The notes: a model not told the origin generated them from the sequence alone. Positions 22,270 to 45,657 are shown, counted from the stretch's first letter. The stretch: DNA of 45,657 nt from an uncultured Actinomycetes bacterium (GCA_903847495.1 CAINDT010000349.1:1-45657), one strand, 5' to 3'. Translations and numbers: made by a program.

Positions 22270-22535
22270 TTGATGGTCCTTTCGAGGTTCTCGAGACGAC
22301 GCTGGATGTCCTCGAGCGTCTTCGTGTGCAGGGCGTCCGCCACAGCAGTGGATGCCTGGGCTCTCGCCAGATCGTTCACGACGACAGCGAGCTTGTCGAG
22401 ATCGGTGCGCGTCTGATTCAGCTGCTCGGTCTTGCCACCGAATGCGAACAGGAGCGTGGCGATGCCGACGAGCATGGTCACGATCTGGAGGATTCCGACG
22501 ACGTTGACTGGTTTCGCTTCAGACATGTCATTCAC
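22266..22535 (-). CDS. N-terminally anchored coiled-coil membrane protein (i-spanin-like or second holin), 89 aa
   Basis: TM segment VVGILQIVTMLVGIATLLFAFGG followed by a coiled-coil-like region. GTG at 22535 (GTGA overlap) or ATG at 22526. Confidence 0.55.
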   Translation of the reverse strand: MNDMSEAKPVNVVGILQIVTMLVGIATLLFAFGGKTEQLNQTRTDLDKLAVVVNDLARAQASTAVADALHTKTLEDIQRRLENLERTIK

Positions 22536-22996
22536 CCATTGAGGATCTCGTCGCGGCGCGCCTGCGTCAGCAGCCCCTGCGACACGAGGTAGTCCATGCC
22601 GGCCACCGTCATCGGGTCATCCGAGACGATCTCCTGCGCAGCCTGTGCGAGCTGCTGGAAGTCGGCGACGTTCGCGTTGGTAAGCGAGGCTGCGCGGAAT
22701 GCGGCGCGCTCCTCCGCCGTGAACCGAAGGAGGAACTGATAGGCAGTCCACTTCTTGCGCATTTCTTTTTCCGTCTTTGCGCGCACCGTCCAGACCTGCG
22801 TAACGGAATCGGGATTGACCTGCCAGGAATATTCGGCGATCTCCGACTCCGAGACATCCGGAGCGTCTTCGTAGTTGACCGGAAGGAACGAATCCTTCTT
22901 GGGATTCCCCGTGAGAACCCAGTTCGCGTGGAGCTCGTCGGGAACATCTCTGAACTCCACCAACGAGCCATTCAGAACGTAGGCGAACAAGCTCAT
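22532..22996 (-). CDS. Hypothetical protein, 154 aa (possible fibre assembly or accessory protein)
   Basis: Track ORF with an ATGA overlap to the LamG-like gene. No catalytic motif recognised. Confidence 0.7.
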   Translation of the reverse strand: MSLFAYVLNGSLVEFRDVPDELHANWVLTGNPKKDSFLPVNYEDAPDVSESEIAEYSWQVNPDSVTQVWTVRAKTEKEMRKKWTAYQFLLRFTAEERAAFRAASLTNANVADFQQLAQAAQEIVSDDPMTVAGMDYLVSQGLLTQARRDEILNG

Positions 22997-23634
22997 CCAA
23001 TTCTCCGTACATGGGTAGATGCGTTGGTCGTTCCGTTGACCGTCGAGGAGATCAATGCTCGCTCGCTATTGAAGTTGTTGATCATCGGGATGTAGTACCT
23101 CATCGCGCCAGGGCGGACCATATTTGCCTTCGCCCCGGTGTATAGCGCATTTATTTCAGCCTGCGTGAGCGTGACGCTCCAGAGCGCCAGCTCCGCGATG
23201 TCCCCGTTCCACTGCGGAGTCGTGACATTGTTGTCGAAATATGCGCCTGTCAGTATTCGCGTAAGGATCATGACTGACTGTTCCTGCTCGTCGAAAGACA
23301 TCACGGAGTTCAGGCCAATCCTGCGATCGACATTGTTGTTGACTATTGCGGTGACCATGTTCCACGACCCCTGGATCAGGATGTCGGTGGTTTCCCAATA
23401 GGTGCTGAAACCCGTGGATGCCGTGTCGATGAACACGCGATTCGTCGCGCCGTCGATTCCCACCGCCACGCGATTGACCACCGAACCGCCGCGCATGGTT
23501 ACCGCACTGGCGAAACCGGGGATGCCCGTTGGCCGAATCCAGAAGTTGATCGTGAAGCGACCAAATCCCGTCGGCATGACGGCATCGACGTACTGGTTAG
23601 GCGTACCGCTGATGTTGGTGAACGACATCGCCAT
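22993..23634 (-). CDS. LamG/concanavalin-like lectin-domain protein, 213 aa
   Basis: Motifs FTINFWIRP..., SWNMVTAIV and GDIAELALWSVTLTQAEINALYTG, typical of Laminin-G-3-type domains. TGATG junction. Confidence 0.7.
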   Translation of the reverse strand: MAMSFTNISGTPNQYVDAVMPTGFGRFTINFWIRPTGIPGFASAVTMRGGSVVNRVAVGIDGATNRVFIDTASTGFSTYWETTDILIQGSWNMVTAIVNNNVDRRIGLNSVMSFDEQEQSVMILTRILTGAYFDNNVTTPQWNGDIAELALWSVTLTQAEINALYTGAKANMVRPGAMRYYIPMINNFNSERALISSTVNGTTNASTHVRRIG

Positions 23635-24395
23635 CAGGATGCGCTCCGCACCTCAACCGCAATGAGTCGTGCGTCTCCCCCCATTGTGTCCGAACCAGAG
23701 CTGGCGTCACGGTAGATCGCCAATCGGTATGCGTCTCCCGCCGTAATGCCGTCAATGGCCGTGATGGTGATTTCCGCCGTTACAGGAACAGCCGCAGTTC
23801 CGTTGACGGTGGAAATCACCGTTGCCGTTGCTGCGCTGAATGAATTGATTTGAGTGCTTGTGTTGCCGCGTTCAACCTGTACACCCCAGACGCAGTTTCC
23901 CGTAGTTACACCGAGTGAACACCAATGGACCCTCACCTTGAGTCCACTGGTGAGGTCTGCCGCCTCTGGCATGACCGACTGGAAGTATGCATATTCAAGG
24001 TTCGCAGGGTCAAACTCAAGGACAGCGGTTCCGTTTCCCGTGACATTGACTGTCGCGAATTGTCCCGCTGGCGGCATATTGTCGAGCGTAGTAAATACGG
24101 CGTAGGTCTTGGTTCCCCCACCCCCGCCGACACTCACAGGTTCCCACTGCCCGTCTCCACGAAGGAACTTCGTGCTATCAGCGGTACCCGTTCCAAGTCG
24201 TGCGGTATTGAACGTCCCCGAGGTAATTGCAGACGCATCGTGGTCGTGCGTAGCCGGCACGATTCCGACGCCGCCGGCGGTCGTGCCATCGCCGATGTAG
24301 AGAATCTTCGTGTCGGTGGCGAAAACAGGCTCTCCCACAAGGGGGATCGTGCTCACCCGATCAGAGTTCGGACCTCGTTTGATCTGTAGAGGCAT
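23634..24395 (-). CDS. Tail fibre / receptor-binding protein, 253 aa
   Basis: N-terminal anchor module MPLQIKRGPNSDRVSTIPLVGEPVFATDTKILYIGDG. Fibre motif HDHDASAITSGTFNTARLGTGTADSTKFLRGDGQW. Confidence 0.75.
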   Translation of the reverse strand: MPLQIKRGPNSDRVSTIPLVGEPVFATDTKILYIGDGTTAGGVGIVPATHDHDASAITSGTFNTARLGTGTADSTKFLRGDGQWEPVSVGGGGGTKTYAVFTTLDNMPPAGQFATVNVTGNGTAVLEFDPANLEYAYFQSVMPEAADLTSGLKVRVHWCSLGVTTGNCVWGVQVERGNTSTQINSFSAATATVISTVNGTAAVPVTAEITITAIDGITAGDAYRLAIYRDASSGSDTMGGDARLIAVEVRSAS

Positions 24396-24427
24396 GGATT
24401 TACCTGGAGAAATTTCTTACGGGAGTA

Positions 24428-24703
24428 TCACGATTCACCGCCACCGCCACTAGGAGGGAAAAGTCCAAAGTCGGCATTCACGATAGTCCATACCGACCCG
24501 CTGGAGGAGACGGTGATGTCACCCTTGCTTCCATCGGTGACGCCAGCTCCGCCTCCACCGATCTCGACGACGGTCCCGTTGTCCTTCTTCGTGAAGAGCT
24601 TGCCGTCGGCGGTGTTCACCGCGAGCTCGCCTGTCACGAGGGTTCCAGCCGCTGGAGTGGCTCCAGTCGTGCTGTTGCGCTTGTGCCGAAGGGTGATCGC
24701 CAT
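24428..24703 (-). CDS. Anchor-module mini-protein, 91 aa
   Basis: MAITLRHKRNSTTGATPAAGTLVTGELAVNTADGKLFTKKDNGTVVEIGGGG plus about 40 aa. TGATG junction. Confidence 0.65.
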   Translation of the reverse strand: MAITLRHKRNSTTGATPAAGTLVTGELAVNTADGKLFTKKDNGTVVEIGGGGAGVTDGSKGDITVSSSGSVWTIVNADFGLFPPSGGGGES

Positions 24704-25788
24704 CAGAAGGTTCCGCCATCAAGGGTAATGTTGTCGATCGTGCCGCCCGTGATCGCGACGTTGCTCGCGGCCTGGGTGGACATCGTGCCGAGACCGAGGT
24801 TCGACCGCGCCGTAGCGGCATCGGTCGCTCCAGTTCCGCCGTTCGCAATGGCGACCGTGCCGGTCACGTTTGCCGCAGTACCCGTCACGCTGCCCGAGAT
24901 CGCGTTCGTGCAGGTGATGTCGTCGGTGACGACGGCGTGAGCCAAAAGGAACGACTGGCTCGCCGTCGAGTAGAAGCCCTTCGTGCCGTTGAGCAGGAAG
25001 AAGCCCTTCTGCGGATTGAGGCGAATGGACTCGCTCGAGTTCCATGCGCCGTTGGCATTGACCCAGTTGAACGTCTTGTCCGTCGCGCCGCGCAGCGTGA
25101 TGCCGCCGCCGTCCGCCGTCGTGTTCGTCGGCGAGGCGACGTTTCCGAGCGTGATGTTCTTGTCGGCCACGTCGACGGTCGTCGAGTTGACCGTCGTCGT
25201 CGTGCCGTTCACCGTGAGGTTGCCCGTCACGGTCAGGTTGGACGAGATCGTGCCGCCAGTCAGCGGAAGGTACGTTCCGGAAAGATCGGGGATGTCCGCG
25301 GCGGCGAGCATGCGGAACGTCGGGGCTCCGCTCGAGCCATTCGGGGCGGCGAACACGGTGTTGGTCGTCTGGGACGCGAGCGTACCCGTCAGGGTTCCGC
25401 TCGTCGTCACCGGCGATCCGGAGACCGTGATGAACGACGGCAGCGACAGGCCGACGCTCGAGACCGCGCTCGCCAGGTAGCCCTGGCCGTTGACCCATGC
25501 GGTCGTCGCGACGTTCGTGGAGCTGTCGCCGTTCGACACCGTCGGCGCAGTGAGGGCGCCGATGAACGCCTTCGTGCCGGAGATGGTCTGGTTGCCCGTG
25601 AGCGCCATGAAGGCGCCCTTGCCGGCAATCGCCTCGATCGTGGTCGCAGAGCCACCGATGCCGCCACTACCTTTGCCGTAGTACAGCGTGTCGTCGACCT
25701 CGTTGAAGGCGACCTCTGCGTTAGCAAGGCTAGACGGTGCGCCAGTGGCACCAGATGCACGACGCCTGATCCGAAGTGTGTTTGCCAT
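24703..25788 (-). CDS. Tail fibre protein, 361 aa
   Basis: Anchor module MANTLRIRRRASGATGAPSSLANAEVAFNEVDDTLYYGKG. Gly/Thr/Ser-rich shaft. Motif IANGGTGATDAATARSNLGLG. Ends LDGGTF. Confidence 0.8.
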   Translation of the reverse strand: MANTLRIRRRASGATGAPSSLANAEVAFNEVDDTLYYGKGSGGIGGSATTIEAIAGKGAFMALTGNQTISGTKAFIGALTAPTVSNGDSSTNVATTAWVNGQGYLASAVSSVGLSLPSFITVSGSPVTTSGTLTGTLASQTTNTVFAAPNGSSGAPTFRMLAAADIPDLSGTYLPLTGGTISSNLTVTGNLTVNGTTTTVNSTTVDVADKNITLGNVASPTNTTADGGGITLRGATDKTFNWVNANGAWNSSESIRLNPQKGFFLLNGTKGFYSTASQSFLLAHAVVTDDITCTNAISGSVTGTAANVTGTVAIANGGTGATDAATARSNLGLGTMSTQAASNVAITGGTIDNITLDGGTF

Positions 25789-25796
25789 GTGACATC

Positions 25797-26942
25797 CTAG
25801 AAGTCACCGCCGTCCACGAGGTCGGTCTGCGGGACATTCACCCACTTACCCGTGGCGGCAGAGTATGAGAAAACGTTCTTGTCTCCAACGGACGTGACCG
25901 TGAAATCCGTCAGATTTGCGATTGCATGGGTGTGTGCGGTCGGCGTGCGAGCGTCCGACAGGCGGGCGTCGTCTGCCCGGACGGCCTTGGTCGAGCTGAC
26001 CGTGCCGCTGGCGACGAAATCGACCGCGAAAGTACGGCTGGCCGACAGGTCGCCGCCGCCCGTCAGGCCAGTGCCAGCCGACATCAGGGTGTTCACGTCG
26101 GCCTTGGTCGAGTCCGAGACCGTCGCGACGGACAGCTGGGGCTTGCCACCTACGGTTCCCCAGACGAACTGGGTCGAGAGCTTGACCTCCTGTGCAGTAC
26201 CCTCGATGCCTCCAGGCTGGCGCCCAATGAGTGAGGAGGACCCCACCGGCTGGATGCTCGGGTAGGAGATCTTCTCGTTGCGCCAGACACCGGCTGCGGC
26301 ATCCCAGACGAGCGCGTCGTTGTCGACTGGCGTGGGAGCCAGAACGTCATGCAGCTCGTTGAGCTCGGGGTAGTTGATGATCTTGACGTAGATCGACCCC
26401 GCGCCGCCGCCAGCCTTCTTGATCAGCCACCCCAGGAACACGCCGTGCTTCGGCTGCACGGGCTTGTCCGAGGTGAACTGGCCGGCCACGTCCGACAGCC
26501 AGATCGGGGATCCAGACGCGCCAGTGAGCGTGTTCGTGGTGACTCCCGTCAGCAGACCTTCGGTGAGGATGATTCCAGTCGCGTTGTTGGCGATGTCCTC
26601 GTAGGCGACTCCGATGGTCTTTGAGCTGGTCGATTCCGAGTCGGCGTCCGCAAGGGCGATCGAGATCTCGGATTCTCCGTGAGCGCCATTGACGTAGACC
26701 ACCGAGCCCTTGGGGATCGTCGCTCCCGTCGAGTTGCGCGCGATCTCGCGAATTCCCGATGTCGAGATGGAATGTGCCTTGTAGCCGTTCTGCGTGGTCC
26801 TGCCGAGAACCCACATGCGTCCGGTCCGCTTGCAGACGAATATCTCGCCATCCTCAAAATTTGAAAAGTAGATTCCATTTGGATCCGGAGCGAACTGCGT
26901 TTCCTGCGAATATGCCTTTGGAATGATTGGTCCAGTGATCAT
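25797..26942 (-). CDS. Tail fibre protein, 381 aa
   Basis: Track ORF with an ATGA overlap. Motif RLSDARTPTAHTHAIANLTDF. Ends VDGGDF. Confidence 0.75.
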   Translation of the reverse strand: MITGPIIPKAYSQETQFAPDPNGIYFSNFEDGEIFVCKRTGRMWVLGRTTQNGYKAHSISTSGIREIARNSTGATIPKGSVVYVNGAHGESEISIALADADSESTSSKTIGVAYEDIANNATGIILTEGLLTGVTTNTLTGASGSPIWLSDVAGQFTSDKPVQPKHGVFLGWLIKKAGGGAGSIYVKIINYPELNELHDVLAPTPVDNDALVWDAAAGVWRNEKISYPSIQPVGSSSLIGRQPGGIEGTAQEVKLSTQFVWGTVGGKPQLSVATVSDSTKADVNTLMSAGTGLTGGGDLSASRTFAVDFVASGTVSSTKAVRADDARLSDARTPTAHTHAIANLTDFTVTSVGDKNVFSYSAATGKWVNVPQTDLVDGGDF

Positions 26943-28033
26943 GCGAGCAGTCCTTCCATCGTTGCGAGGATCTGTGCGTCCACGGATTGCAGTGCGAGAG
27001 CGGTCGTCCTTCTCGCACTCCTCATGGGTAGAAGCGGACTACCCCTGCCGGCGCAGTAGGAGAAAACGTTCGTGGGAAGCAGCGTGCCTGCGATGTTTCC
27101 TGATGCCTGGAAATCTCCGTAGCCCGCTCGCTGGGATCCATACCACGAGTCCACGAAATTCGTCGCAAAGTAAGCATGCACCGGGACGACCCCGAGGACA
27201 CCGTCTCCAGCCTCCGGGGATGAAGGAGGGGATATCTCCGCAAGGAGCAGGGATCCCGAGTCGTGAAGGAACAGTTGTCCATTCTTCGGAACCTCGGTGC
27301 CATCCGGTTTGAGAAGCTGGGATCTGTATTGATCTCGACCGCTCTTCACCGCAGCCGAAACCATTCGCAATCGTCCGATCTTGTGGTTCGAGTCTAGGAT
27401 CCACAGTGTCTGCCCGACGCCCATATTCCTTGCGTCTACAGCCTGCATCGGAGGAACCGACACGGTTCCGATGAACTCGAGGATCGAAAGATCGCACTGC
27501 GACAGATTGCAATCCAGATTTGTCGGAGGATCGGATGAATAACCAAGCATGACGTTCGTCGGAGACACGCTCGCGATGACGCTGTTGTCGTGGTCAAGCC
27601 ATCGGAACTGCATCGATGATTCAAAAAAAGTTCCCGGCGTGTAGCCTCCGGTACCGACAAATCGATAGTTCGGATTCCGAGCTCCCAGCATGTTGAAGCA
27701 GTGACCGCACGCCCACATGAACTTCTCGCTCATCACGAGAAATTGCATCGGGTACGAGTTGTAGTAGACCGGCTTGTTTGCCTCGAGTGCTGGGTTGTTG
27801 TATTCCGCATAGATTGCAGCAACAGGATCGCTGCAAACTGTGCTGAATGTGCGGAACCTAGCGGAGATCCCCCGCAATGAACGACGATATCCGTACAACG
27901 GACTGTTGGGATTCCAGCCAATCGGCCTCTTGACCGTGGAGCTGGACGGCTCTGGAAGGGTCCAGGAAATCTGATGGTCCTCGTAGATCCACAGATCCTG
28001 TGTCGCGGGGTTGTACGGGTACGGGATCAGCAT
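26939..28033 (-). CDS. Tail-associated hypothetical protein, 364 aa, lower-GC segment
   Basis: ATG at 28033 in a TGATG junction (MLIPYPYNPATQDLW...). The N-terminal 77 aa of the track ORF are Arg-rich shadow. Confidence 0.7.
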   Translation of the reverse strand: MLIPYPYNPATQDLWIYEDHQISWTLPEPSSSTVKRPIGWNPNSPLYGYRRSLRGISARFRTFSTVCSDPVAAIYAEYNNPALEANKPVYYNSYPMQFLVMSEKFMWACGHCFNMLGARNPNYRFVGTGGYTPGTFFESSMQFRWLDHDNSVIASVSPTNVMLGYSSDPPTNLDCNLSQCDLSILEFIGTVSVPPMQAVDARNMGVGQTLWILDSNHKIGRLRMVSAAVKSGRDQYRSQLLKPDGTEVPKNGQLFLHDSGSLLLAEISPPSSPEAGDGVLGVVPVHAYFATNFVDSWYGSQRAGYGDFQASGNIAGTLLPTNVFSYCAGRGSPLLPMRSARRTTALALQSVDAQILATMEGLLA

Positions 28034-28488
28034 CACGGTCCCCAGGTCAGTCCATAAACCCCGCCCACCGCGATCTCGTTGGTGATCTGGTCGAGCGTGG
28101 CGAGGATCTGCTGCTGCGTCGTCGCCGACGCCACGTCGTTGTTCTGCGATGCGGCGGTGACTCGACCGAACTGGTCGACCGTGATCGATGGCACGAGGTA
28201 CGAGCCGGCGGGAGAAGGGACGATCGGCGTCAGTCCGCCGCCTCCGGTCGCGAGCTCGATCCATGTGCTCGGAGCCGTCGCAAGCGTGTAGTACTTCGAC
28301 GCCGCCGTGACGTAGACGAGCATGCCGACGGTCTTACGGCTCAATGGAAGCGCGTCACGCGCGGCGATGGTCGCCACGGTCATCAGACCGCCTCGACCAT
28401 ACTCCGCGATGTGCGTCGGGTTGAGGTCGTTCGGCTCCGTCGGCGCGATGGGGATCCCGAGCGGGAAGACTGATTCAGAGTGCGGCAT
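28033..28488 (-). CDS. Tail fibre-associated protein, 151 aa
   Basis: Track ORF with TGATG junctions at both ends. Confidence 0.7.
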   Translation of the reverse strand: MPHSESVFPLGIPIAPTEPNDLNPTHIAEYGRGGLMTVATIAARDALPLSRKTVGMLVYVTAASKYYTLATAPSTWIELATGGGGLTPIVPSPAGSYLVPSITVDQFGRVTAASQNNDVASATTQQQILATLDQITNEIAVGGVYGLTWGP

Positions 28489-28679
28489 CAGAAGTTTCCT
28501 CCGTCAATCTGGTCCCCGTCCTGCAAGCCGCCTCCGACCTGCACGACGGTACCGTTCGACTTCTTGACGTACACCTTCCCGTCGGCGGTGTTCATCGCCA
28601 TCTCGCCGAGCTGCAACTGCACTGGCTGCGGAACCGCGCCAGGAGTCGAGCTGCGCTTGAGCAGGAAGGTGTCTGCCAT
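28488..28679 (-). CDS. Anchor-module-only mini-protein, 63 aa
   Basis: ATG at 28679 in a TGATG junction. Product MADTFLLKRSSTPGAVPQPVQLQLGEMAMNTADGKVYVKKSNGTVVQVGGGLQDGDQIDGGNF. Confidence 0.6.
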   Translation of the reverse strand: MADTFLLKRSSTPGAVPQPVQLQLGEMAMNTADGKVYVKKSNGTVVQVGGGLQDGDQIDGGNF

Positions 28680-31021
28680 CAGTAGACCCCTCCGTCGTAG
28701 GTGTTGTCCGTGAGCGGCGTCGGGCAGTCGCCGTCGATCGCGTTGGTCAGGCAGAAGTAGGCGACCGGAGTGTCCGCGGCACGATCCACGTCTTCGGTAT
28801 TCTCGAAGCGGACGGACATGTAGAGCGTGGCCTGCACGATGACCTCGTGCTGCTCGCCGAGACGATCCAGTCCGATGGGCAGGATGTCGAAGCCGCTCTG
28901 CGCCAGCGGGAGCTTGTAGCCCGGTCCCGCGAACGTCGAGGTGTTCGCGAGCTCCGCGAGGTTGTAGGCGAGGATCGTCTGGTCCGCCCACGTCGTGTCG
29001 AGCTTCGAGAAGTCCTTCAGCTGACCGGGCCATGATGCAAGCGGGTTGTTCGGCGGAGGCGGGTAATGGCCGGACGAGTTGTCGAACACCATTCCCTTGT
29101 AGATCAGCTTCGCCCGGTAGCTCCAAGCCTTCACGCCGGCGTTGAAGGGACCGTCGTTGCCCGTGATCTTGATCAGGCAGGGTATGCCGAAGGGCCACTC
29201 GACGCTGATGTGGTTCTTGCCGCGCGCATCGCGCCACGACTTGGCGAGTCCGCTCGTCGAGACCTCGAGTGGCCGGTCGTCGGCCTGCGGCACGAATAGC
29301 GGGTCGTAGTAGTCGCTGTAGATGCGCGTCGTCGGAAATCCGAAGCCGCTCGAGTCGGTCTGCAACCGGTACTCGATCCACGCCGCTCCCATCCACGTTT
29401 CCTCGGGAGGAGGAACCTCGATCCATCCACGGAACCAGAGATCGCAGACCCCGTGGCGCCGCCGAAGATTGACGGCGTTCATGTAGTACCAGCTGATTTC
29501 CTCAAAGTCTCTCGAAGTCAGCTTTGGGGTGGTTATCAGTGATGGTGTAGTAAGGTCGTAGAACAGATCCTTACTTCTGTTTACTTTTTCTTTGATAGCT
29601 GATGTTTGAGCGACTGCCAGCGGCTCATCAGCAAATATCGCTGAATTAGATCTGTTGCCGGCATCACCAGAGAAGTACCCGTTGTAGATGCCGGGGATGT
29701 TCTGCGAGAAGGGTTCCGGAAGATAATTGCTCGTCAGCGCACTCGCCGTGCGGTTGTAGTGATCTACCTTGAACACATCCGGAGGACGGCCATCTGGAAT
29801 GTTCGCGTGTCTGACGACAACGTCTACATTTTCCTTGGATGTCTCCACGAATGGCGCGTAGCTGATGATCCTGTTCACCCACTTGAAGTTCTGTCCCTGA
29901 CTTGGGTTTCCACCAGTGACGAACGAACTCATTTCCCCGAACACCGAGCCGGCGATCAGGTCGTCTCCGTACCTCTCCATGTATTCACGGAACGGGTAGA
30001 TCGTGTAGTCTGAATTTCCCTGGATCGACCTGCTGTATCCAAGTGGGGTGAACTCGTACTGACCAAGAGGTTCCTCAAGCCCACGCGGACGAACATGCAT
30101 CGCCACACCGCATTTGGTCATCAGGTAGTCGCAATACTCGACAAGCGGCCTGCTCGTGATGCTGTCCATTCCCGGGAAACCAGTGAACCACTCTTCGCTC
30201 GGCGATATTCCGTATAACTGTGAATAGCTTTGATATACGGTGTTGTGGAAATCGATGTTTCCGCTGCCAGAACCGAGGTTAAAGATCCCATTGTTTGGAT
30301 CGGTGTCCAGCATCCCAAGCTGGACTGTCAATGCGTAATAGACAAGTACCTTGGGACTTCGACGGCCATCTGCCAGATCGAAGTTCTGGAGGACAAGATC
30401 GTTACGCCATGACCTGGGAGCTATTGTCTTGTTCGGTTCATCATCCAAAATCGCTTTATTCAGCCTTGTTCCACGATGCAGCCATCGGCTGTCGTGGAAC
30501 GACAGGATGTACAGGGCTTCTCCCTCATTGGTGACGAGTACCTGCTGTTCACCCGTAACCGGGTCGATGACAGGATCTCCATTCTCGTCCGTGATTGGCT
30601 TCCGAAGGACGATTCCACTCGCAGTAACCGCAAGAGGCGTGATGTTCGCAAGCCACATCCGATTGAAGCAAGTCGTTTGCGCGCCCGGAGGAAGAGTGCC
30701 TCCGCTCTTGAGCCAGATGCGAAATGGTCTATCTTTGTTTAAAGTATCTTGTGGCTCGAGAGCCTGCCAGTTGTCCTCTTCCTTCATCAACAAGCGGAAC
30801 AGGTCGCTGCGCAAAACCAGGATCTTCGCCGTCGCGTACCTCGAGAGGCCGAAGATCGGCCACTTCAGACTGTTGATGTCCGCGGTGTCGATGTTCTGCC
30901 GGCGGCAGATAGCCTCGATCTCCGGCGTGAGAAGGCGCGCATAGATGCTGCGCAAAGAAGGTGTCTCACCGGGAAAATCCCGAGAGATCTCGATCTCGAC
31001 TCCGCCGACGCTTGCACTCAT
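28679..31021 (-). CDS. Large distal-tail / hub-like structural protein, 780 aa
   Basis: Track ORF with an ATGA overlap. Placement follows the tape measure protein and the 673-aa protein. Compositionally mosaic. Confidence 0.7.
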   Translation of the reverse strand: MSASVGGVEIEISRDFPGETPSLRSIYARLLTPEIEAICRRQNIDTADINSLKWPIFGLSRYATAKILVLRSDLFRLLMKEEDNWQALEPQDTLNKDRPFRIWLKSGGTLPPGAQTTCFNRMWLANITPLAVTASGIVLRKPITDENGDPVIDPVTGEQQVLVTNEGEALYILSFHDSRWLHRGTRLNKAILDDEPNKTIAPRSWRNDLVLQNFDLADGRRSPKVLVYYALTVQLGMLDTDPNNGIFNLGSGSGNIDFHNTVYQSYSQLYGISPSEEWFTGFPGMDSITSRPLVEYCDYLMTKCGVAMHVRPRGLEEPLGQYEFTPLGYSRSIQGNSDYTIYPFREYMERYGDDLIAGSVFGEMSSFVTGGNPSQGQNFKWVNRIISYAPFVETSKENVDVVVRHANIPDGRPPDVFKVDHYNRTASALTSNYLPEPFSQNIPGIYNGYFSGDAGNRSNSAIFADEPLAVAQTSAIKEKVNRSKDLFYDLTTPSLITTPKLTSRDFEEISWYYMNAVNLRRRHGVCDLWFRGWIEVPPPEETWMGAAWIEYRLQTDSSGFGFPTTRIYSDYYDPLFVPQADDRPLEVSTSGLAKSWRDARGKNHISVEWPFGIPCLIKITGNDGPFNAGVKAWSYRAKLIYKGMVFDNSSGHYPPPPNNPLASWPGQLKDFSKLDTTWADQTILAYNLAELANTSTFAGPGYKLPLAQSGFDILPIGLDRLGEQHEVIVQATLYMSVRFENTEDVDRAADTPVAYFCLTNAIDGDCPTPLTDNTYDGGVY

Positions 31022-33039
31022 GCCAGCACCTCTGGCGCGCCGAGGCCACCGGTGTACGAGGGACGGCTGTCCGGATCGATTCCCTGTGTCTCGTCGTACG
31101 GAAGATCGAACTTGTTCGGGTAGTAGCGGATGAGGCTGTACGACCTGCCGTTCATCGACGCCGTCACGCGCTGGAACGTCGGATTAGACGGCGATGCGCC
31201 GCTCGAGGAAGGCACGTCCGCTGGGCAGGTCTGGATGGACGTGCGGTCGAACTTGGCCGTGAGGATGCGGTTGCCGTTGAGATCAGGCGCACCGCTCGAG
31301 CCACCGAACGAGTAGCTCGTAAGGAACGATCCAGTGTTCGAGCGGCGCTCCTCGATGACGCGCTGCGGAGCTTCGTTCATGGTCGCGCTGTTCTGCGTCT
31401 CGACGACCTCGACGTACGGGGGAGTCAGCTGGAAGATCACATCGCCTCCGCTGCCGGAGACGGAGGGAACGCGGATGCAGCCCGTGTGAACGACCTCGCG
31501 CCGGTTTCCGTTCGACTGGAGAACTTGAGGAGCCGCGACGACCTTCTTGGCAAGGTCGCCCTTGTTCGGACCCGTCACGACCTGGGTGTTCGACGCAGGG
31601 ATGTAGTTGTTGATCTGGTCGCTTTGCTGCTGCTGGTTGAATGCGTCGAATGTTCCGCGCGGGAACTGATAGACGACGGGATTCTGACCGTCCAGCTGGA
31701 ACGTCGTCGGAAGCAGCATGTCCGGCGAGTTCGGATTGACTATGTTCGCATGGTCGTACGCGGACGGAGTCATGCGTACGATGAGCGCGGATCCGTATGC
31801 GTCAGGCTGGAACGCGGGAACGAAATCGAAGTTCCCGACCTCGGTCTTGATCGAGCCCAGGATGTTCTTGAGGAACAGACTCGAGGAGATGAGCGTGCTC
31901 GTGCCTGCGGGCGTCGGCGTGTCGTCGTCGGTGTCCGATGCCCCAGCCGTGAACACCTGCGTCGATGTGGCCTTTGCCGCCACCTCGAAGGTAATCGCGT
32001 TCTCGGTGAGCATGTTCTGCTCGGTGACGCGGATCGAGGTGATGAGGTCGTTCTTGTAGTCGATCCTGTTCTGCGACAGTCGGATGCAGAGCGTAAGCAG
32101 GGCTCCCGGCGTGACGTTGCGGTCGCCCTTCACGCTGGCGATGAAGTGCTTCACGCCGATGACGTGGGTGTCCTGCAACGAACGCTCGAACGTGTAGGAA
32201 CAGTCGCCGACGCGGGCGGGAGCCGGCAAGCCGCGCGCGAACTCCTGATCGGTGATGTCGAACAGCAGGCGGGTGCGGCTCTCGTCGACAGCGTACTCCT
32301 GCCGCACGCGGCGGAATCCGCGGTACAGGTTCCCCGAGACGAAGCGGCGGTAGAAGTCCGCGCCATCTCCGCCGATGCCGCTCGACGTGATGAAGTCGAC
32401 GACCACGTCCGTCCGGTAGGCGTCTCCGCCGGGATACGGGTTCTGGAATGTCGCAGTGTTCGGGGAGCCCGCCCTGTCGAGGGCGGTACCGGCGATGACA
32501 GGAGCCACTGCTCCAGGCGTCGAGACGATATGGAGGGAACCCGTCTTCCTGATCGTCGTGTGTCCCATCTCGTCGATCGAGAAGTCGGCTCGGCAGTAGA
32601 AGTTCTTGATCTTGTTGGCGGAGGACGACGCAAGGGCGAACTCCGCCGTGAAGTTCACGACGACCGCGTTGGTACCCGTGATCTGCACCATTGCGGCGCG
32701 GAAGAACGGACCGCCCATCTCGTCCTGCACCCTGGGGTTTAGGTTTCCCGGTCCAGGAATGGTGTTGACGATGTCGAACGCCTTGTTCGTCTCGTCGACG
32801 ATCCTGATCCGAAGCTCCTTGCGGGGCTGATTGAGCCTCTGAATCATCTGCTGCGCGAAGTTCTGGTTGCTTGTGTTGTAGTCGCCGGTTTCCGCGAACA
32901 CGAGCGCCTCTCCGGTCACCGTGTGCATCAGCATCGACGACGATGGATTGCCGTGGTCGGCTGCGCTGTCGATGCGGTACTCGACGATGCGGACCTGGCG
33001 CAGGTTGACGCCGTTGTATCGGATGGTTGTCTCGCTCAT
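31018..33039 (-). CDS. Distal tail protein-like structural protein, 673 aa
   Basis: ATG at 33039 in an ATGA overlap with the tape measure stop. N terminus MSETTIRYNGVNLRQVRIVEYRID... Confidence 0.7.
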   Translation of the reverse strand: MSETTIRYNGVNLRQVRIVEYRIDSAADHGNPSSSMLMHTVTGEALVFAETGDYNTSNQNFAQQMIQRLNQPRKELRIRIVDETNKAFDIVNTIPGPGNLNPRVQDEMGGPFFRAAMVQITGTNAVVVNFTAEFALASSSANKIKNFYCRADFSIDEMGHTTIRKTGSLHIVSTPGAVAPVIAGTALDRAGSPNTATFQNPYPGGDAYRTDVVVDFITSSGIGGDGADFYRRFVSGNLYRGFRRVRQEYAVDESRTRLLFDITDQEFARGLPAPARVGDCSYTFERSLQDTHVIGVKHFIASVKGDRNVTPGALLTLCIRLSQNRIDYKNDLITSIRVTEQNMLTENAITFEVAAKATSTQVFTAGASDTDDDTPTPAGTSTLISSSLFLKNILGSIKTEVGNFDFVPAFQPDAYGSALIVRMTPSAYDHANIVNPNSPDMLLPTTFQLDGQNPVVYQFPRGTFDAFNQQQQSDQINNYIPASNTQVVTGPNKGDLAKKVVAAPQVLQSNGNRREVVHTGCIRVPSVSGSGGDVIFQLTPPYVEVVETQNSATMNEAPQRVIEERRSNTGSFLTSYSFGGSSGAPDLNGNRILTAKFDRTSIQTCPADVPSSSGASPSNPTFQRVTASMNGRSYSLIRYYPNKFDLPYDETQGIDPDSRPSYTGGLGAPEVLA

Positions 33040-34535
33040 GGACGGAACTCCCACCAGTTGTTCGCGGTCGCGAGCGGCCTGCGGTTCCCGCCGCGCATGC
33101 TCGGATACGCGCGGTCAGGATCGAACCTGCCGGCGGTCATCTCGGAAAGGTCGTCGATGAACACGCCGTTCACCGTGGCGCGGGCCTGATTGATCCTGCC
33201 GTTGATGTATGCATTGTAAGCCGCGTCGATCTGCGGGAAAAGAGACTTCACGAGCGACCCGATGGGGGTATATCCCATCATTCCGACCATTCCGGCGGCG
33301 AACGCCTGTCCGTTGCCTGCGAGACCTTCGGACAGGAGTCCGAGGTTGGATCCGACGCGGAGCAGGCCCGCACCGATGACCGAAGTCGCCGAGCTGCCGA
33401 GGTACCTCGCGAACCGAGTCGTCTCGATGTTCAGCAGCTCCTCGCGGGTGAACCCAGCCGAGGTGTTCCGCGATGCACGGGCCAGGATGATGTTGTCCCG
33501 AATCTGGGCGATCTGAACCTGTGCCTGCATCATGGCGGTCGGGGCGTCGACCATCGCATAAGCGGCCCTTGTCGCCCGAGCCGAATCGACGATGCGCTTC
33601 AGCATCTCGCCGATGCGGCGGACAATGTTGACGAGCATCTGCCCGATGGCGAGAACCCGCCCGAACACCCGAAGGAACCCGCCGGCTCGCTCCATGAACG
33701 TCGGTGCCGCAGGCTGCGCCCCAGGAGCCGCGGGAGGTCGGGCGATGTCCCGAACCTGACGGGCATAGGCCCGTGTTCCCGGCAGACCCGACGGGGAGAC
33801 CTGCCCGGACAGGATGGCGCGCTCCTCGTCATTGAACGCGGGAGTCGCGCCAGACTCGCGCTGTCGGCGCAGAACGTCGATGCGCTCCTGCATGGCGCTC
33901 GACATCCGGTTCCTTGCCGCACGCAGTCCGGCCATATGGTCCGTGCGGGCGTTGCGCATGGCATCGCGCTGGGCAGCGGCCTCTCGCCTGTAGATCTCCC
34001 GTGCGGTCTCCGCGCTGATCCTTCCCTGCTGGGATTCGCCAAACAGCTCGACGCGACGGAGGGAAAGCGCCTCGCGCATCTCGTTCCGCGTCATGGACGC
34101 GCGCTGCGCCTCGTCGTGGTACCGCGCGAGAAGACCGCGATGGGCCTCGGAACCGATGTCGCTGAACCGGAGACCCGGCGTGCGGGTCATCCTGTTGCGG
34201 TACTCGAGCACCGAGGCGGCAAAGCCACTGGCAGGCTCGTCTCCTGCCCTTGGACGGCCTCCGCGACCTCCGCCCCCACCACCACCGCCTCCGCCACCGC
34301 CACCGCCTCCTGCGCCTCCACCGCCTCCGCCACCAGCTGCCCGACCGCTGCGCGCGAGAACGCGGAGGGTCTCGAGTATCGCGCGCACGTTGCCATTGAT
34401 GGCGCCTACGTTCACCTGGATGTGACGCAGGGTCTCGAGCACGGACTGCATCGTGGTGTCGGAGCCGCCGCGCGCGGGGTCACCGTCACCCGTGATGTTC
34501 ACGTTGATGCTTGCTACGGACGCCAGATCGGACAT
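33036..34535 (-). CDS. Tape measure protein-like, 499 aa, with poly-Gly tract
   Basis: ATG at 34535 in a TGATG junction. Long helical, Arg/Ala/Gln-rich sequence with hydrophobic segments (GGFLRVFGRVLAIGQMLVNIV, AAGMVGMMGY). Positioned after the chaperone-like genes. Confidence 0.65.
   Translation of the reverse strand: MSDLASVASINVNITGDGDPARGGSDTTMQSVLETLRHIQVNVGAINGNVRAILETLRVLARSGRAAGGGGGGGAGGGGGGGGGGGGGGGRGGRPRAGDEPASGFAASVLEYRNRMTRTPGLRFSDIGSEAHRGLLARYHDEAQRASMTRNEMREALSLRRVELFGESQQGRISAETAREIYRREAAAQRDAMRNARTDHMAGLRAARNRMSSAMQERIDVLRRQRESGATPAFNDEERAILSGQVSPSGLPGTRAYARQVRDIARPPAAPGAQPAAPTFMERAGGFLRVFGRVLAIGQMLVNIVRRIGEMLKRIVDSARATRAAYAMVDAPTAMMQAQVQIAQIRDNIILARASRNTSAGFTREELLNIETTRFARYLGSSATSVIGAGLLRVGSNLGLLSEGLAGNGQAFAAGMVGMMGYTPIGSLVKSLFPQIDAAYNAYINGRINQARATVNGVFIDDLSEMTAGRFDPDRAYPSMRGGNRRPLATANNWWEFRP
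34257..34334. repeat. GGN-codon low-complexity tract encoding G7-A-G15-RGG
   Basis: Tape measure residues 68-93. The plus strand reads CCGCC/CCACC repeats. Confidence 0.9.
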
Positions 34536-35335
34536 CAGCCCACCTCGATCGAATAGGAGAGGCTCGTCGCCGTGGTCGTGTACGCACGGCGATACCACTG
34601 GTACGTCACACCGTCCTGCACGAACGAACCGACGGCTGGACCGTCAGGAGGCGGGAATCCCGTCCTGTAGAACGGCTCGAGTCCCTGCGCGGTGCGGATG
34701 GTCACTCCCATCGCGTGCAGATCGGCGGGGATCGCGAACCACAGGTATGTGGGAGTCGTGGCCTGTCGGTTGACCGTTGCGACGTACTTCACGGAATTCG
34801 AGAAGTTGACCTCTTCGGTCAAACCCGCCCACGTCGGCTGCGTGGCGCTGAACCCATAGCGGAAGATTCCAGCCACGGGCCAGGGCAGCGCGTACGAGCA
34901 GACGAAGATGTCCGTCGCCGCCATGTAGTTGGACGACCTCGGCTCGGTGCGGACGGGACCACTCGAGACGAGGCGGATGGCGACCTGGAGCAGTCCGTCG
35001 AGCGTGTCCTGGATCAGGGCTCGCCTCACGTCGGCCTGACGGGCCATGACGCCCTTGTCGATGCCGGCGATCATGCGGCTCTGCTTGATGTCGTTGTCCG
35101 ACGCATGGCGGACATACGTCGTGACCGCGAACCGCTCGGTGATGAAGCCGAGTCCGGAGCGGTTGAACTCGTTCGTCGCGCCGGCGGCGACGGGCGACAG
35201 CTGCACCGCGAAGTCCATCGCCTCCGCGAAAGCAGGCTCGCCGATCAGGTAGACGCGGCTTGCCGGGATCCCGAGCGTCGTGATCAGGCGCTGGCGGAGA
35301 GCGCGATGCACTGCATCCTGCGTTGCGAGGATCAT
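34535..35335 (-). CDS. Virion structural protein, 266 aa (tail-terminator-like N-terminal half plus extra domain)
   Basis: Track ORF with an ATGA overlap. Placement only; the family impression is weak. Confidence 0.6.
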   Translation of the reverse strand: MILATQDAVHRALRQRLITTLGIPASRVYLIGEPAFAEAMDFAVQLSPVAAGATNEFNRSGLGFITERFAVTTYVRHASDNDIKQSRMIAGIDKGVMARQADVRRALIQDTLDGLLQVAIRLVSSGPVRTEPRSSNYMAATDIFVCSYALPWPVAGIFRYGFSATQPTWAGLTEEVNFSNSVKYVATVNRQATTPTYLWFAIPADLHAMGVTIRTAQGLEPFYRTGFPPPDGPAVGSFVQDGVTYQWYRRAYTTTATSLSYSIEVG

Positions 35336-45168: not shown

Positions 45169-45499
45169 GGGTAGGCTCGCGAGGAGGAGGGTTAGTAAGC
45201 ACCCCCTACCCCTGTCGCTACGTGTGTCGGTCGCGTCGGCGCGGCGCCGCGCGTCTCGCATCGGTCGATCCGAGACGGTTGCAGCGTCCGCGCAAGCGAT
45301 CGGTTGCGCCAGTGAGCACGCGCGCGCATCGTCCGACGGGTTAGCTCGCGAGCATCTCGGCGCGAGCCCCTCGGCGCGTCGGCTCCTGCCTGCCTGCCTG
45401 CGTGGGGCGAGTCGGTGGCCGGCCATGCCATCGCGGGCGCCAGTGCGGCGCCTAGGTCGATCCCCGCGGGCTCGGTTGTGGTTCCCCGTTCGTCGGCTC

Positions 45500-45519
45500 G
45501 CGTACCCTCTCGGGTACGC
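45500..45519. promoter_or_regulatory. Perfect hairpin GCGTACCC-tctc-GGGTACGC at the repeat boundary
   Basis: Read directly. Followed by a C/T-rich tract. Confidence 0.4.
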
Positions 45520-45657
45520 TCTCTCGACTCTCTGCGGGGTTCTCGTTGGCCGAGGTAATGCTACGTCGGCACCTCTGCGGAATTCCATCGAACAAGTGCC
45601 GACGGAGCAAAGAAACAACCCGCGCGGGGCTCGCGCGGGTTGGGTTTCTCTTCCTCC
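45517..45657. repeat. Terminal direct repeat, right copy (141 bp)
   Basis: Identical to 1-141. Confidence 0.97.

Follow-up and report, generated by a model that had tools for sequence, protein, structure and literature searches.

The window, by which we mean the whole stretch of 45,657 nucleotides (nt) of DNA from an uncultured Actinomycetes bacterium (GCA_903847495.1 CAINDT010000349.1:1-45657), carries on its minus strand a phage fibre locus in which four genes, for products of 63, 91, 361 and 253 amino acids (p63, p91, p361 and p253), begin with a related N-terminal module, here called the anchor. We consider it probable that these four N-termini are the acceptor modules of head-to-tail fibre joints, and that the locus encodes segmented fibres assembled in series. 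The homology of the anchors, together with C-terminal tails of the form DGG-x-[FY] on the proteins encoded upstream of them, makes serially joined fibre segments the most likely product of the locus. In the proposed assembly, the acceptors would form a single superfamily together with the N-terminal region of T4 gp37 and the Pfam family Mtd_N, and the donor would be the extreme C-terminus, (I/L/V/T)-D-G-G-x-(F/Y)-COOH, of a trimeric fibre-like protein, usually encoded immediately upstream. The protein p780 (...DGGVY) would hold p63; p381 (...DGGDF), and possibly p63 (...DGGNF) too, would hold p361; and p361 (...DGGTF) would hold the protein of a variable slot, here the 91-residue p91. The last of these would probably hand on to p253, a laterally acquired Mtd_N fibre that carries the receptor-binding domain; p213 and p154 may be accessory proteins or chaperones. 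The conserved anchor and the C-terminal half of p154 may double as arms of homologous recombination by which the distal cassette is swapped, which would explain the exchangeability that the earlier note on this DNA had perceived. The genes of the proposed chain are as follows.

28679..31021, minus strand: p780, conserved virion or tail protein; end ...NTYDGGVY-stop, putative donor for the p63 anchor
28488..28679, minus strand: p63, joint-only mini-protein; anchor at residues 1-50 (28530-28679), then GGG and the tail LQDGDQIDGGNF-stop
25797..26942, minus strand: p381, putative first-tier protein; cement/decoration-like N-terminal half, fibre-like C-terminal half, end ...PQTDLVDGGDF-stop
24703..25788, minus strand: p361, conserved middle segment; anchor at residues 1-45 (25654-25788), end ...NITLDGGTF-stop
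24428..24703, minus strand: p91; gp37-N-type anchor at residues 1-50 (24554-24703), DGSKGDITVSSSGSVWTI repeat, ADFGLF, PPSGGGGES-stop
23634..24395, minus strand: p253, putative terminal receptor-binding fibre; Mtd_N anchor (24279-24386), short shaft, GGGGG, receptor-binding domain

An anchor superfamily with three subtypes

All four open reading frames (ORFs) are present on the minus strand with the N-termini that the earlier note had quoted. By BLAST, p63 and p91 are 53-59% identical (E 1e-18), and p91 and p361 are 38% identical over 60 amino acids (E 1e-6). A hidden Markov model (HMM) built only from homologues of p91 outside the window was searched against the 738 six-frame ORFs of at least 30 amino acids in the window. 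It retrieved p91 (1e-31), p63 (5e-23) and p361 (1.5e-7, residues 1-43), the next-best match being noise (0.026), and a broader model of 198 sequences agreed. Profile comparison with hhalign joined the p91-type alignment to the p361 N-terminus (96.6%, E 7e-10), as it did when 40 distinct p361-type N-termini were compared with the p91 type (98%, E 2e-13). The anchor of p253 was missed by BLAST and by the p91-type HMM. Its residues 4-39 passed the Pfam Mtd_N profile (PF18454) at 36.8 bits against a cut-off of 26.3, covering positions 2-37 of 37, and the profile of the 40 p361-type N-termini aligned in register with Mtd_N-type alignments (78-90%, E 2e-5 to 1.5e-6). Taken together, these links establish a single superfamily with three subtypes. 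The proposal that four genes share a module of about 45 residues, akin to the N-terminus of the Bordetella phage BPP-1 Mtd, is therefore upheld, with p63, p91 and p361 joined at significant similarity, p253 meeting the Pfam threshold, and the tie between the two sets made at the profile level through the p361 type.

The relation to Mtd_N is a graded one. Full-length p63, p91 and p361 gave no Pfam Mtd_N match at E<=1; the N-terminus of p91 alone (52 amino acids) scored 14.8 bits (E 0.028), below threshold, and sub-threshold matches were found in 13 of 32 p91-type N-termini (best 1.3e-4). On these comparisons the three proteins are remote relatives of Mtd_N and not members by the Pfam rule. A homologue search with the p253 N-terminus returned two proteins only. 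One of them, P0065, has an Mtd_N anchor ahead of a p91-like post-anchor segment (GVSDGSKGAISVASNGTVWTITDTDFGV versus GVTDGSKGDITVSSSGSVWTIVNADFGL), a fusion that argues independently for the equivalence of the Mtd_N and p91-type anchors. A 16-nt identity between two of the copies is real as well (24603-24618 and 28579-28594); its second copy lies at the latter position and not near 28572, where it had first been placed. It encodes NTADG, none such is expected by chance, and it is embedded in an 81-nt stretch of the p63 and p91 anchors that is 77% identical.

Beyond the window, the p91-type profile matched 21,188 protein clusters (50%-identity representatives) at E<=1e-3. The match began at residue 1-5 in all of the 150 best, in proteins of 65-1,605 amino acids, and the matching PHROG families are labelled tail fibre or "long tail fiber distal subunit", the gp37-type ones with the latter label being PHROGs 1699, 35830 and 19966. 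Residues 8-52 of p91 aligned with positions 10-54 of phrog_1699 (E 5e-11; p63 E 8.5e-7), and p63 matched PHROG tail-fibre N-termini at E 2e-9. A tblastn search with the p91 anchor matched the start of gene 37, over its first ~50 codons, in 937 phage records, most of them T4-like. Sequence matches of this kind place p63 and p91 in the gp37-N family; p361 belongs to it through profile comparison only. In phage PP01, gp36, encoded upstream of gp37, ends in ...QDFGYY. Trimeric gp36 binds the N-terminal region of gp37, forming the distal half-fibre (PMC3004832), and the best-characterised member of the family is thus a fibre-to-fibre joint, not a baseplate socket. Since the module is a very common fibre N-terminus, its presence here is, at face value, ordinary. 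Five proteins (P0067, P0070, P0072, P0085 and P0169) contain two or three separate anchor-profile matches per chain, which suggests fused multi-tier fibres or internal module repeats.

Upstream donor tails and the readings they bear on

The C-termini of p780 (YDGGVY), p63 (IDGGNF), p381 (VDGGDF) and p361 (LDGGTF) account for four of the five GG-x-[FY] ends among the 738 window ORFs, of which 12 end in any F or Y. The fifth is an ORF at 45195-45560, minus strand (...GVGGAY), at the far end of the genome, adjoining the terminal repeat. Such tails stand directly upstream of three of the four anchor genes (p780 before p63, p381 before p361, p361 before p91); judged by sequence, p63, p361 and p91 would each have the upstream partner of a gp36-gp37-type joint. 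All four tails are kept in relatives, that of p780 as DAGVY or DGGTY.

The adjacency extends well beyond this genome. We collected 80 IMG/VR loci with a p91-type anchor (55-94% identity to the query, contigs of 4-205 kb, fibres of 72 to >1,050 amino acids). An ORF ending in D[GA]G.[FY] stopped within 150 nt upstream of the anchor ATG in 73 of the 79 evaluable loci, representing 50 distinct anchor/tail pairs with stop-to-ATG spacings of -1 to 64 nt, commonly 48-51 nt; in two of the six exceptions the motif lies 4-5 residues short of the C-terminus. The background in the sampled loci is 132 of 4,030 ORFs, and most of the remaining motif carriers are other tiers of the same chains. The proteins upstream of p91-type anchors usually start with a p361-type anchor, and 37 of 40 distinct p361-type anchors are themselves preceded by an ORF ending in ...(T/V)DGGNF. 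The residue x tracks the anchor subtype: among cases that are not phylogenetically independent, N or D fills the position in 25 of the 28 distinct tails that precede p361-type anchors and in none of the 31 that precede p91-type anchors (Fisher p = 1e-13), where T, S, A or E is found. Of 80 loci with Mtd_N-type anchors, 35 have a D-x-G-x-hydrophobic C-terminus ahead of the anchor, TDYGTY, LDMGAI, VDFGSL and IDGGGF among them; the background is ~10/3000 ORFs (~0.3%). Tail and anchor also vary together, in that the p780 homologues without a DGG-x-Y tail (L195, L196) lack p63 as well. The same tiers recur in Vibrio phage 172P1 and in L019-L023, L087, L093 and L067.

These results bear directly on the earlier suggestion that several proteins compete for one docking site. 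If all four anchors docked to one tail site, on p780 or on its neighbour p678/673, the virion would display mixed alternative or competing fibres. The modules are indeed all homologous, their genes lie just downstream of two large conserved structural proteins, and phages with multiple receptor-binding proteins (RBPs) that share N-terminal anchors or docking peptides are known (PMC6872550). We nevertheless regard this arrangement as quite improbable. The anchors are divergent in the three subtypes described above; those of p63, p361 and the p91 type co-occur unchanged in every relative; and the characterised homologue, gp37, binds a fibre protein, gp36, and not the baseplate. A single site would leave the upstream-tail rule and the subtype code without an explanation, as each non-Mtd_N anchor directly follows a gene ending in D-G-G-x-[FY], and the 63- and 91-residue products are without a receptor-binding part to compete with. 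Serial joints between cognate partners fit these observations better.

Several observations weigh against the serial assembly. The codons for DGG in p780 and p63, GAC GGA GGN, form at the same time the GGAGG ribosome-binding site of the next gene, located 8-9 nt ahead of the p63 and p151 start codons with a stop/start overlap of 1 nt (TGATG). The gene for p253 departs from the adjacency rule, as the preceding p91 ends in GGGGES and its DFGLF motif is internal, nine residues before the C-terminus. No anchor was detected by hhalign in p151, the product encoded next after the donor tail of p63 (E 0.18, 0.71), and p151 homologues occur without p63 in some relatives. The p91-type and Mtd_N-type profiles match weakly when compared directly (17-28%, E ~1e-3), and a Foldseek search of the PDB with the p91 model gave no match at E<=0.001. 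The T4 gp36 end is DFGYY and not DGGxF, by which the code is not universal. Finally, adjacency and co-variation could stem from linkage in mobile cassettes and from shared ancestry, the non-independence of the cases counted above being part of this concern.

The first of these points can be made into an explanation of its own, whereby DGG-x-F is a nucleotide artefact, the Shine-Dalgarno sequence of a translationally coupled downstream gene. At 28679-28700 and at 28488-28510 the same bases do carry both the protein motif and the translation signal. The distance from the motif-bearing stop to the ATG varies from -1 to 64 nt across loci, and the motif is accordingly not simply a ribosome-binding site; the terminal aromatic and the subtype-specific x have no ribosome-binding role; and p381, as well as p63 in relatives, keeps the motif despite gaps of 8-15 nt that hold a Shine-Dalgarno sequence of their own. 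The variable spacing largely refutes the artefact as the main cause, and we give it hardly any credence.

The concern about mobile cassettes leads to a different account, in which the module does no more than nucleate trimerisation or folding and offer a handle for recombination, the tails and the gene order are co-inherited in mobile cassettes with no contact between tail and anchor, and p63 and p91 are what remains of the 5' ends of replaced fibre genes. The breakpoints of cassettes fall at the anchor end, cassettes move between unrelated phages, and p91 is far shorter than the alleles of 265-511 amino acids and resembles a truncation at the poly-Gly junction. The collagen domains among the weak structural matches of p91 also speak for this account. 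AlphaFold modelled residues 1-50 of p91 as four strands with confidence scores (pLDDT) of 88-96, and the weak Foldseek matches of the model were mostly phage fibre or spike N-termini (GVE2 ORF18, E 0.07; CBA120 TSP3/4; HylP; Mtd 1yu1, E 2.5) together with the trimerisation domains of collagens XV and XVIII, a pattern that is suggestive only. Sequence searches of the PDB with the anchor profile and with p253 returned nothing meaningful. Against the account stands the conservation of the short proteins. In relatives p63 is exactly 63 amino acids long, falls into four clusters only (81-95% identity), always overlaps the p780 stop and invariably ends in QDGDQIDGGNF. Its ratio of non-synonymous to synonymous substitution rates (dN/dS) is 0.17-0.22 at dS 0.65-0.77, and p63 is under purifying selection. 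Strong purifying selection also acts on a donor mini-protein of 70 amino acids in another lineage (dN/dS 0.07). In independent lineages, too, short proteins with only an anchor stand ahead of full fibres; the subtype of the tail varies with that of the anchor; and gp36-gp37 of T4 offers a precedent for a joint. With these points on the other side, the account appears unlikely to us.

The proximal mini-proteins deserve separate description. With N at x, the p63 tail falls in the class found ahead of p361-type anchors, as does the p381 tail. In L087, a mini-protein of ~105 amino acids (anchor ... SIDGGNF) stands directly before a p361-type fibre. The last ~35 residues of p381 are homologous to the 70-residue mini-proteins that precede p361 homologues in another lineage. 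Mini-proteins of 70-95 amino acids are encoded directly before p361-type fibres at L019 6487-6699, L021 6491-6703, L067 1795-2082 and L093 1554-1835; their C-termini, ...LVDGGNF or ...LTDGGNF, match this same stretch of p381, and they are a donor-only counterpart of p63. No Pfam family matched p63, and neither Pfam nor PHROG matched p780.

A more far-reaching interpretation, which we put forward tentatively and hold to be doubtful, is that the tails and anchors follow a general grammar readable from sequence. Here the C-terminal DGG-x-(F/Y) tail of one trimer would be the socket for the gp37-N/Mtd_N-type anchor of the next, N or D at x would select the p361 type and T, S, A or V the p91 or p63 type, and joint-only pieces of 60-130 amino acids would serve as extenders or converters, p63 being the purest of them. 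By this grammar, p63 (DGGNF) would mount the series p361, p91, p253 on p780 as well as on p381. One fibre would then have two mounting points, the inverse of several proteins sharing one.

The exchangeable distal cassette

Downstream of the conserved joints, the locus is built for exchange, as the earlier note had supposed: the slot gene that carries the p91-type anchor varies in length, the genes that follow it differ, and DNA homology breaks at the anchor end. Three further features are needed here.

22751..24555, minus strand: hypervariable cassette, from the p91 anchor end to the middle of p154; includes p253 and p213
22993-23634, minus strand: p213, Laminin_G_3 match (Pfam, E 1.5e-11)
22532..22996, minus strand: p154, chaperone-like; variable N-terminal half, conserved C-terminal half as the putative right recombination arm; no Pfam match

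Homology to relatives by blastn ends at 24555, the anchor end, or at 24504, and restarts at 22751. The p361 anchor has a dN/dS of 0.05-0.10 (anchors generally 0.05-0.14), at least 40 distinct p361-homologous N-termini were found in IMG/VR, nearly all of them directly upstream of a p91-type gene, and every relative has kept p63, p361 and the p91-type gene together. Homologues of p361 with both of its ends are also encoded in the unrelated genomes L019-L023, after a 70-residue protein ending in TELVDGGNF and before a p91-type protein of 72 or 127 amino acids.

The slot gene itself encodes 72, 91, 127, 265, 369 or 511 amino acids in relatives. The 91-residue allele recurs in L017 and L018 with six synonymous and two non-synonymous changes. 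It stops soon after a poly-Gly tract that, in variant alleles, forms the junction before the receptor-binding part. Runs of 4-9 glycines are encoded at ~24434-24450 (p91), ~24110-24125 (p253) and ~28230-28245 (p151), and also in the slot proteins of L009, L010 and L014; the run precedes the receptor-binding or terminal part in variant alleles and directly follows the anchor in short forms. It looks like a preferred point of module swapping, and is reminiscent of the recombination at conserved motifs in gene 37 of the T-even phages. Read-through from p91 into p253 was rejected, the p253 ATG being out of frame (308 nt, mod 3 = 2).

The receptor-binding domain of p253 is homologous to the C-terminus of the 369-residue slot protein of L009. 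In a different phage, L015, an 84-residue anchor-only protein, a 300-residue Mtd_N fibre and a p154-like gene of 132 codons are laid out as in the window, and the L067 group has an 83-residue protein ending in LDGGAA followed by an Mtd_N fibre of 615-669 amino acids. This recurrence of a short anchor protein ahead of an Mtd_N fibre makes p91 a plausible functional adaptor and not a dead stub; we put the chances of such a role at about even.

A p154-like gene for 132-154 amino acids follows every cassette variant, even in unrelated phages (L009 15742-16203, L010 15533-15937, L015 11166-11564, L019 9540-9962), and its product is a candidate fibre chaperone. The conserved C-terminal half reads WTAYQFLLRFTAEERAAFRAA...DPMTVAGMDYLVSQGLLT..R..EILG. 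A mobile cassette of four genes was found in at least two unrelated lineages (L014 5106-6436, L019 8219-9549, L021 8384-9729); it encodes an anchor-only protein ending in SPITIISAYQQGII, a 137-residue protein, a 267-311-residue Gly_rich_2 protein and a p154-like protein.

Known fibre systems and the surrounding genome

A close known counterpart of the arrangement is the T4 gp36-gp37 joint. The p91 and p63 anchors are homologous to the first ~50 residues of gp37; gp36 is encoded immediately upstream and ends in D-F-G-Y-Y, the same D-x-G-x-aromatic pattern; and it is the distal protein, with the anchor, that varies and binds the receptor. Unlike T4, with one such joint, the window would have three to four tiers with the donor motif DGGx[FY], two of them being the 63- and 91-residue mini-proteins that are little more than the joint. 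The window has no homologues of T4 gp34 or gp35, and the 45.5-kb genome is probably podovirus-like, as no sheath, tube or tape-measure match was found among the ORFs scanned.

The likeness detected to BPP-1 lies in the N-terminal module. Beyond Mtd_N, p253 matched no Pfam family, and no C-type-lectin variable domain was thus detected. A diversity-generating retroelement of the Mtd kind was rejected by the repeat criterion. A direct-repeat scan of the whole window found no template/variable pair of ~100-130 nt, the only long repeats being a 141-nt terminal overlap and the 81-nt pair of the p63 and p91 anchors. No reverse transcriptase was found among 20 large ORFs scanned, in a search that was not exhaustive and did not cover every ORF.

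Podoviruses offer a functional parallel in their adaptor and anchor-branch systems, namely the gp37 adaptor of K1-5 and SP6, the "anchor with truncated protein" of the KP32 group, and gp66/gp63.1 of G7C (PMC6872550). In these, a small or truncated anchor protein persists solely as the holder of an RBP that has a gene of its own, a role that p63 and p91 would match, and RBPs are exchanged horizontally beside conserved structural genes (PMC6872550). Their anchors are T7 gp17-N-like and combined with a T4 gp10-like branching domain, into which an N-terminal peptide docks; the window has gp37-N/Mtd_N-like anchors and a proposed C-terminal pentapeptide platform, serial and not branched, and the Pfam scan detected no T4gp10-like domain. 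By sequence, the anchors are not of the T7 gp17-N type, and the likeness to K1-5 gp37 and the anchor-branch proteins would be functional only.

Among cultured phages, the best match to the p91 anchor (59% identity) is in Vibrio phage 172P1 (Zobellviridae), a likeness of fibre genes. Its gene 0018 ends in ...LIDGGVY, and 0019 (...TIDGGAY) is followed by 0020 (anchor ... TIDGGSY) and 0021 (anchor ... receptor-binding domain). Genes 0018-0021 are annotated as hypothetical and, unlike the window, 172P1 has no 63-residue or Mtd_N tiers.

Fibres in segments, as T4 builds from gp34-37, are of a known kind, and so are adaptor or anchor proteins to which separate RBPs attach (PMC6872550). Three points, all drawn from sequence comparison, appear to be new as far as we found in the literature we searched: an explicit donor motif at the C-terminus, the subtype code of that motif, and mini-proteins that are joints only as a regular part of such fibres. 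The host range of tailed phages is set by their fibres, which often consist of several polypeptides, and the order in which these plug together usually has to be established by cryo-electron microscopy, phage by phage. Were the tails a true interaction code, the order of fibre segments would be predictable from genes for a great many, mostly uncultured phages, the anchor being present in 21,188 clusters; orphan mini-ORFs of 60-130 codons in fibre loci would be explained as connectors, and the anchor end, the poly-Gly junction and the C-terminal tail would offer short splice points for chimeric fibres. Were the wider grammar also to hold, fibre wiring would be readable from sequence in >20,000 protein clusters and re-wirable by design. 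For the present genome, the puzzle of four fibres at one socket would give way to an ordinary, if unusually well-resolved, segmented fibre with a swappable tip.

The window as a whole represents a complete phage genome (45,516 bp). Bases 1-141 are an exact copy of 45517-45657, the result of direct terminal repeats or of overlap in a circular assembly. G+C makes up 57-69%, and nearly every gene lies on the minus strand. The structural module lies at 33-45 kb, as judged from a portal of the Mu type (Pfam Portal_Mu, E 7e-55) and a weak match to a major head protein. No close cultured phage was found by DNA, the matches being short fibre motifs only. The order on the minus strand is p678/673, p780, p63, p151, p365, p381, p361, p91, p253, p213, p154 and small lysis-like genes. 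The genes not listed above are the following.

31018-33054, minus strand: p678/673, large conserved structural protein, upstream of p780
28033..28488, minus strand: p151, fibre-like; N-terminal domain, GGGG, repeat of the "PSITVDQFGRVT" kind
26939..28036, minus strand: p365, start MLIPYPYN...; conserved, between the two fibre groups; no family match

Residues 29-84 of p151 match phrog_23630 and phrog_25379. We considered p151 as a fifth, cryptic anchor, on the ground that its residues 52-73 (GMLVYVTAASKYYT) resemble GELAVNTADGKLFT, but the hhalign values given above do not support this. A frameshift or read-through from p63 into p151 was also rejected: counted from start to start, the two genes are offset by 191 nt (mod 3 = 2) in the window and by 202 nt (mod 3 = 1) in L003, where the genes are separated by a 10-nt gap, and the frameshift geometry is not conserved. 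The p365 homologues of relatives have 364 amino acids; the start of p365 itself overlaps the p151 stop as ATGA.

Residues 70-188 of p381 weakly resemble cement proteins (Pfam Phage_cement_2, E 0.003; phrog_122), residues 265-346 match PHROG tail proteins, and p381 might anchor the fibre on the capsid instead of the tail. In relatives, a separate small cement-like gene adjoins the capsid gene. The ORF at 33036-34598, for a conserved structural protein of ~490-520 amino acids without a family match, contains a tandem, GGN-rich tract of 9-nt periodicity (34257-34340) that is translated into a run rich in Gly.

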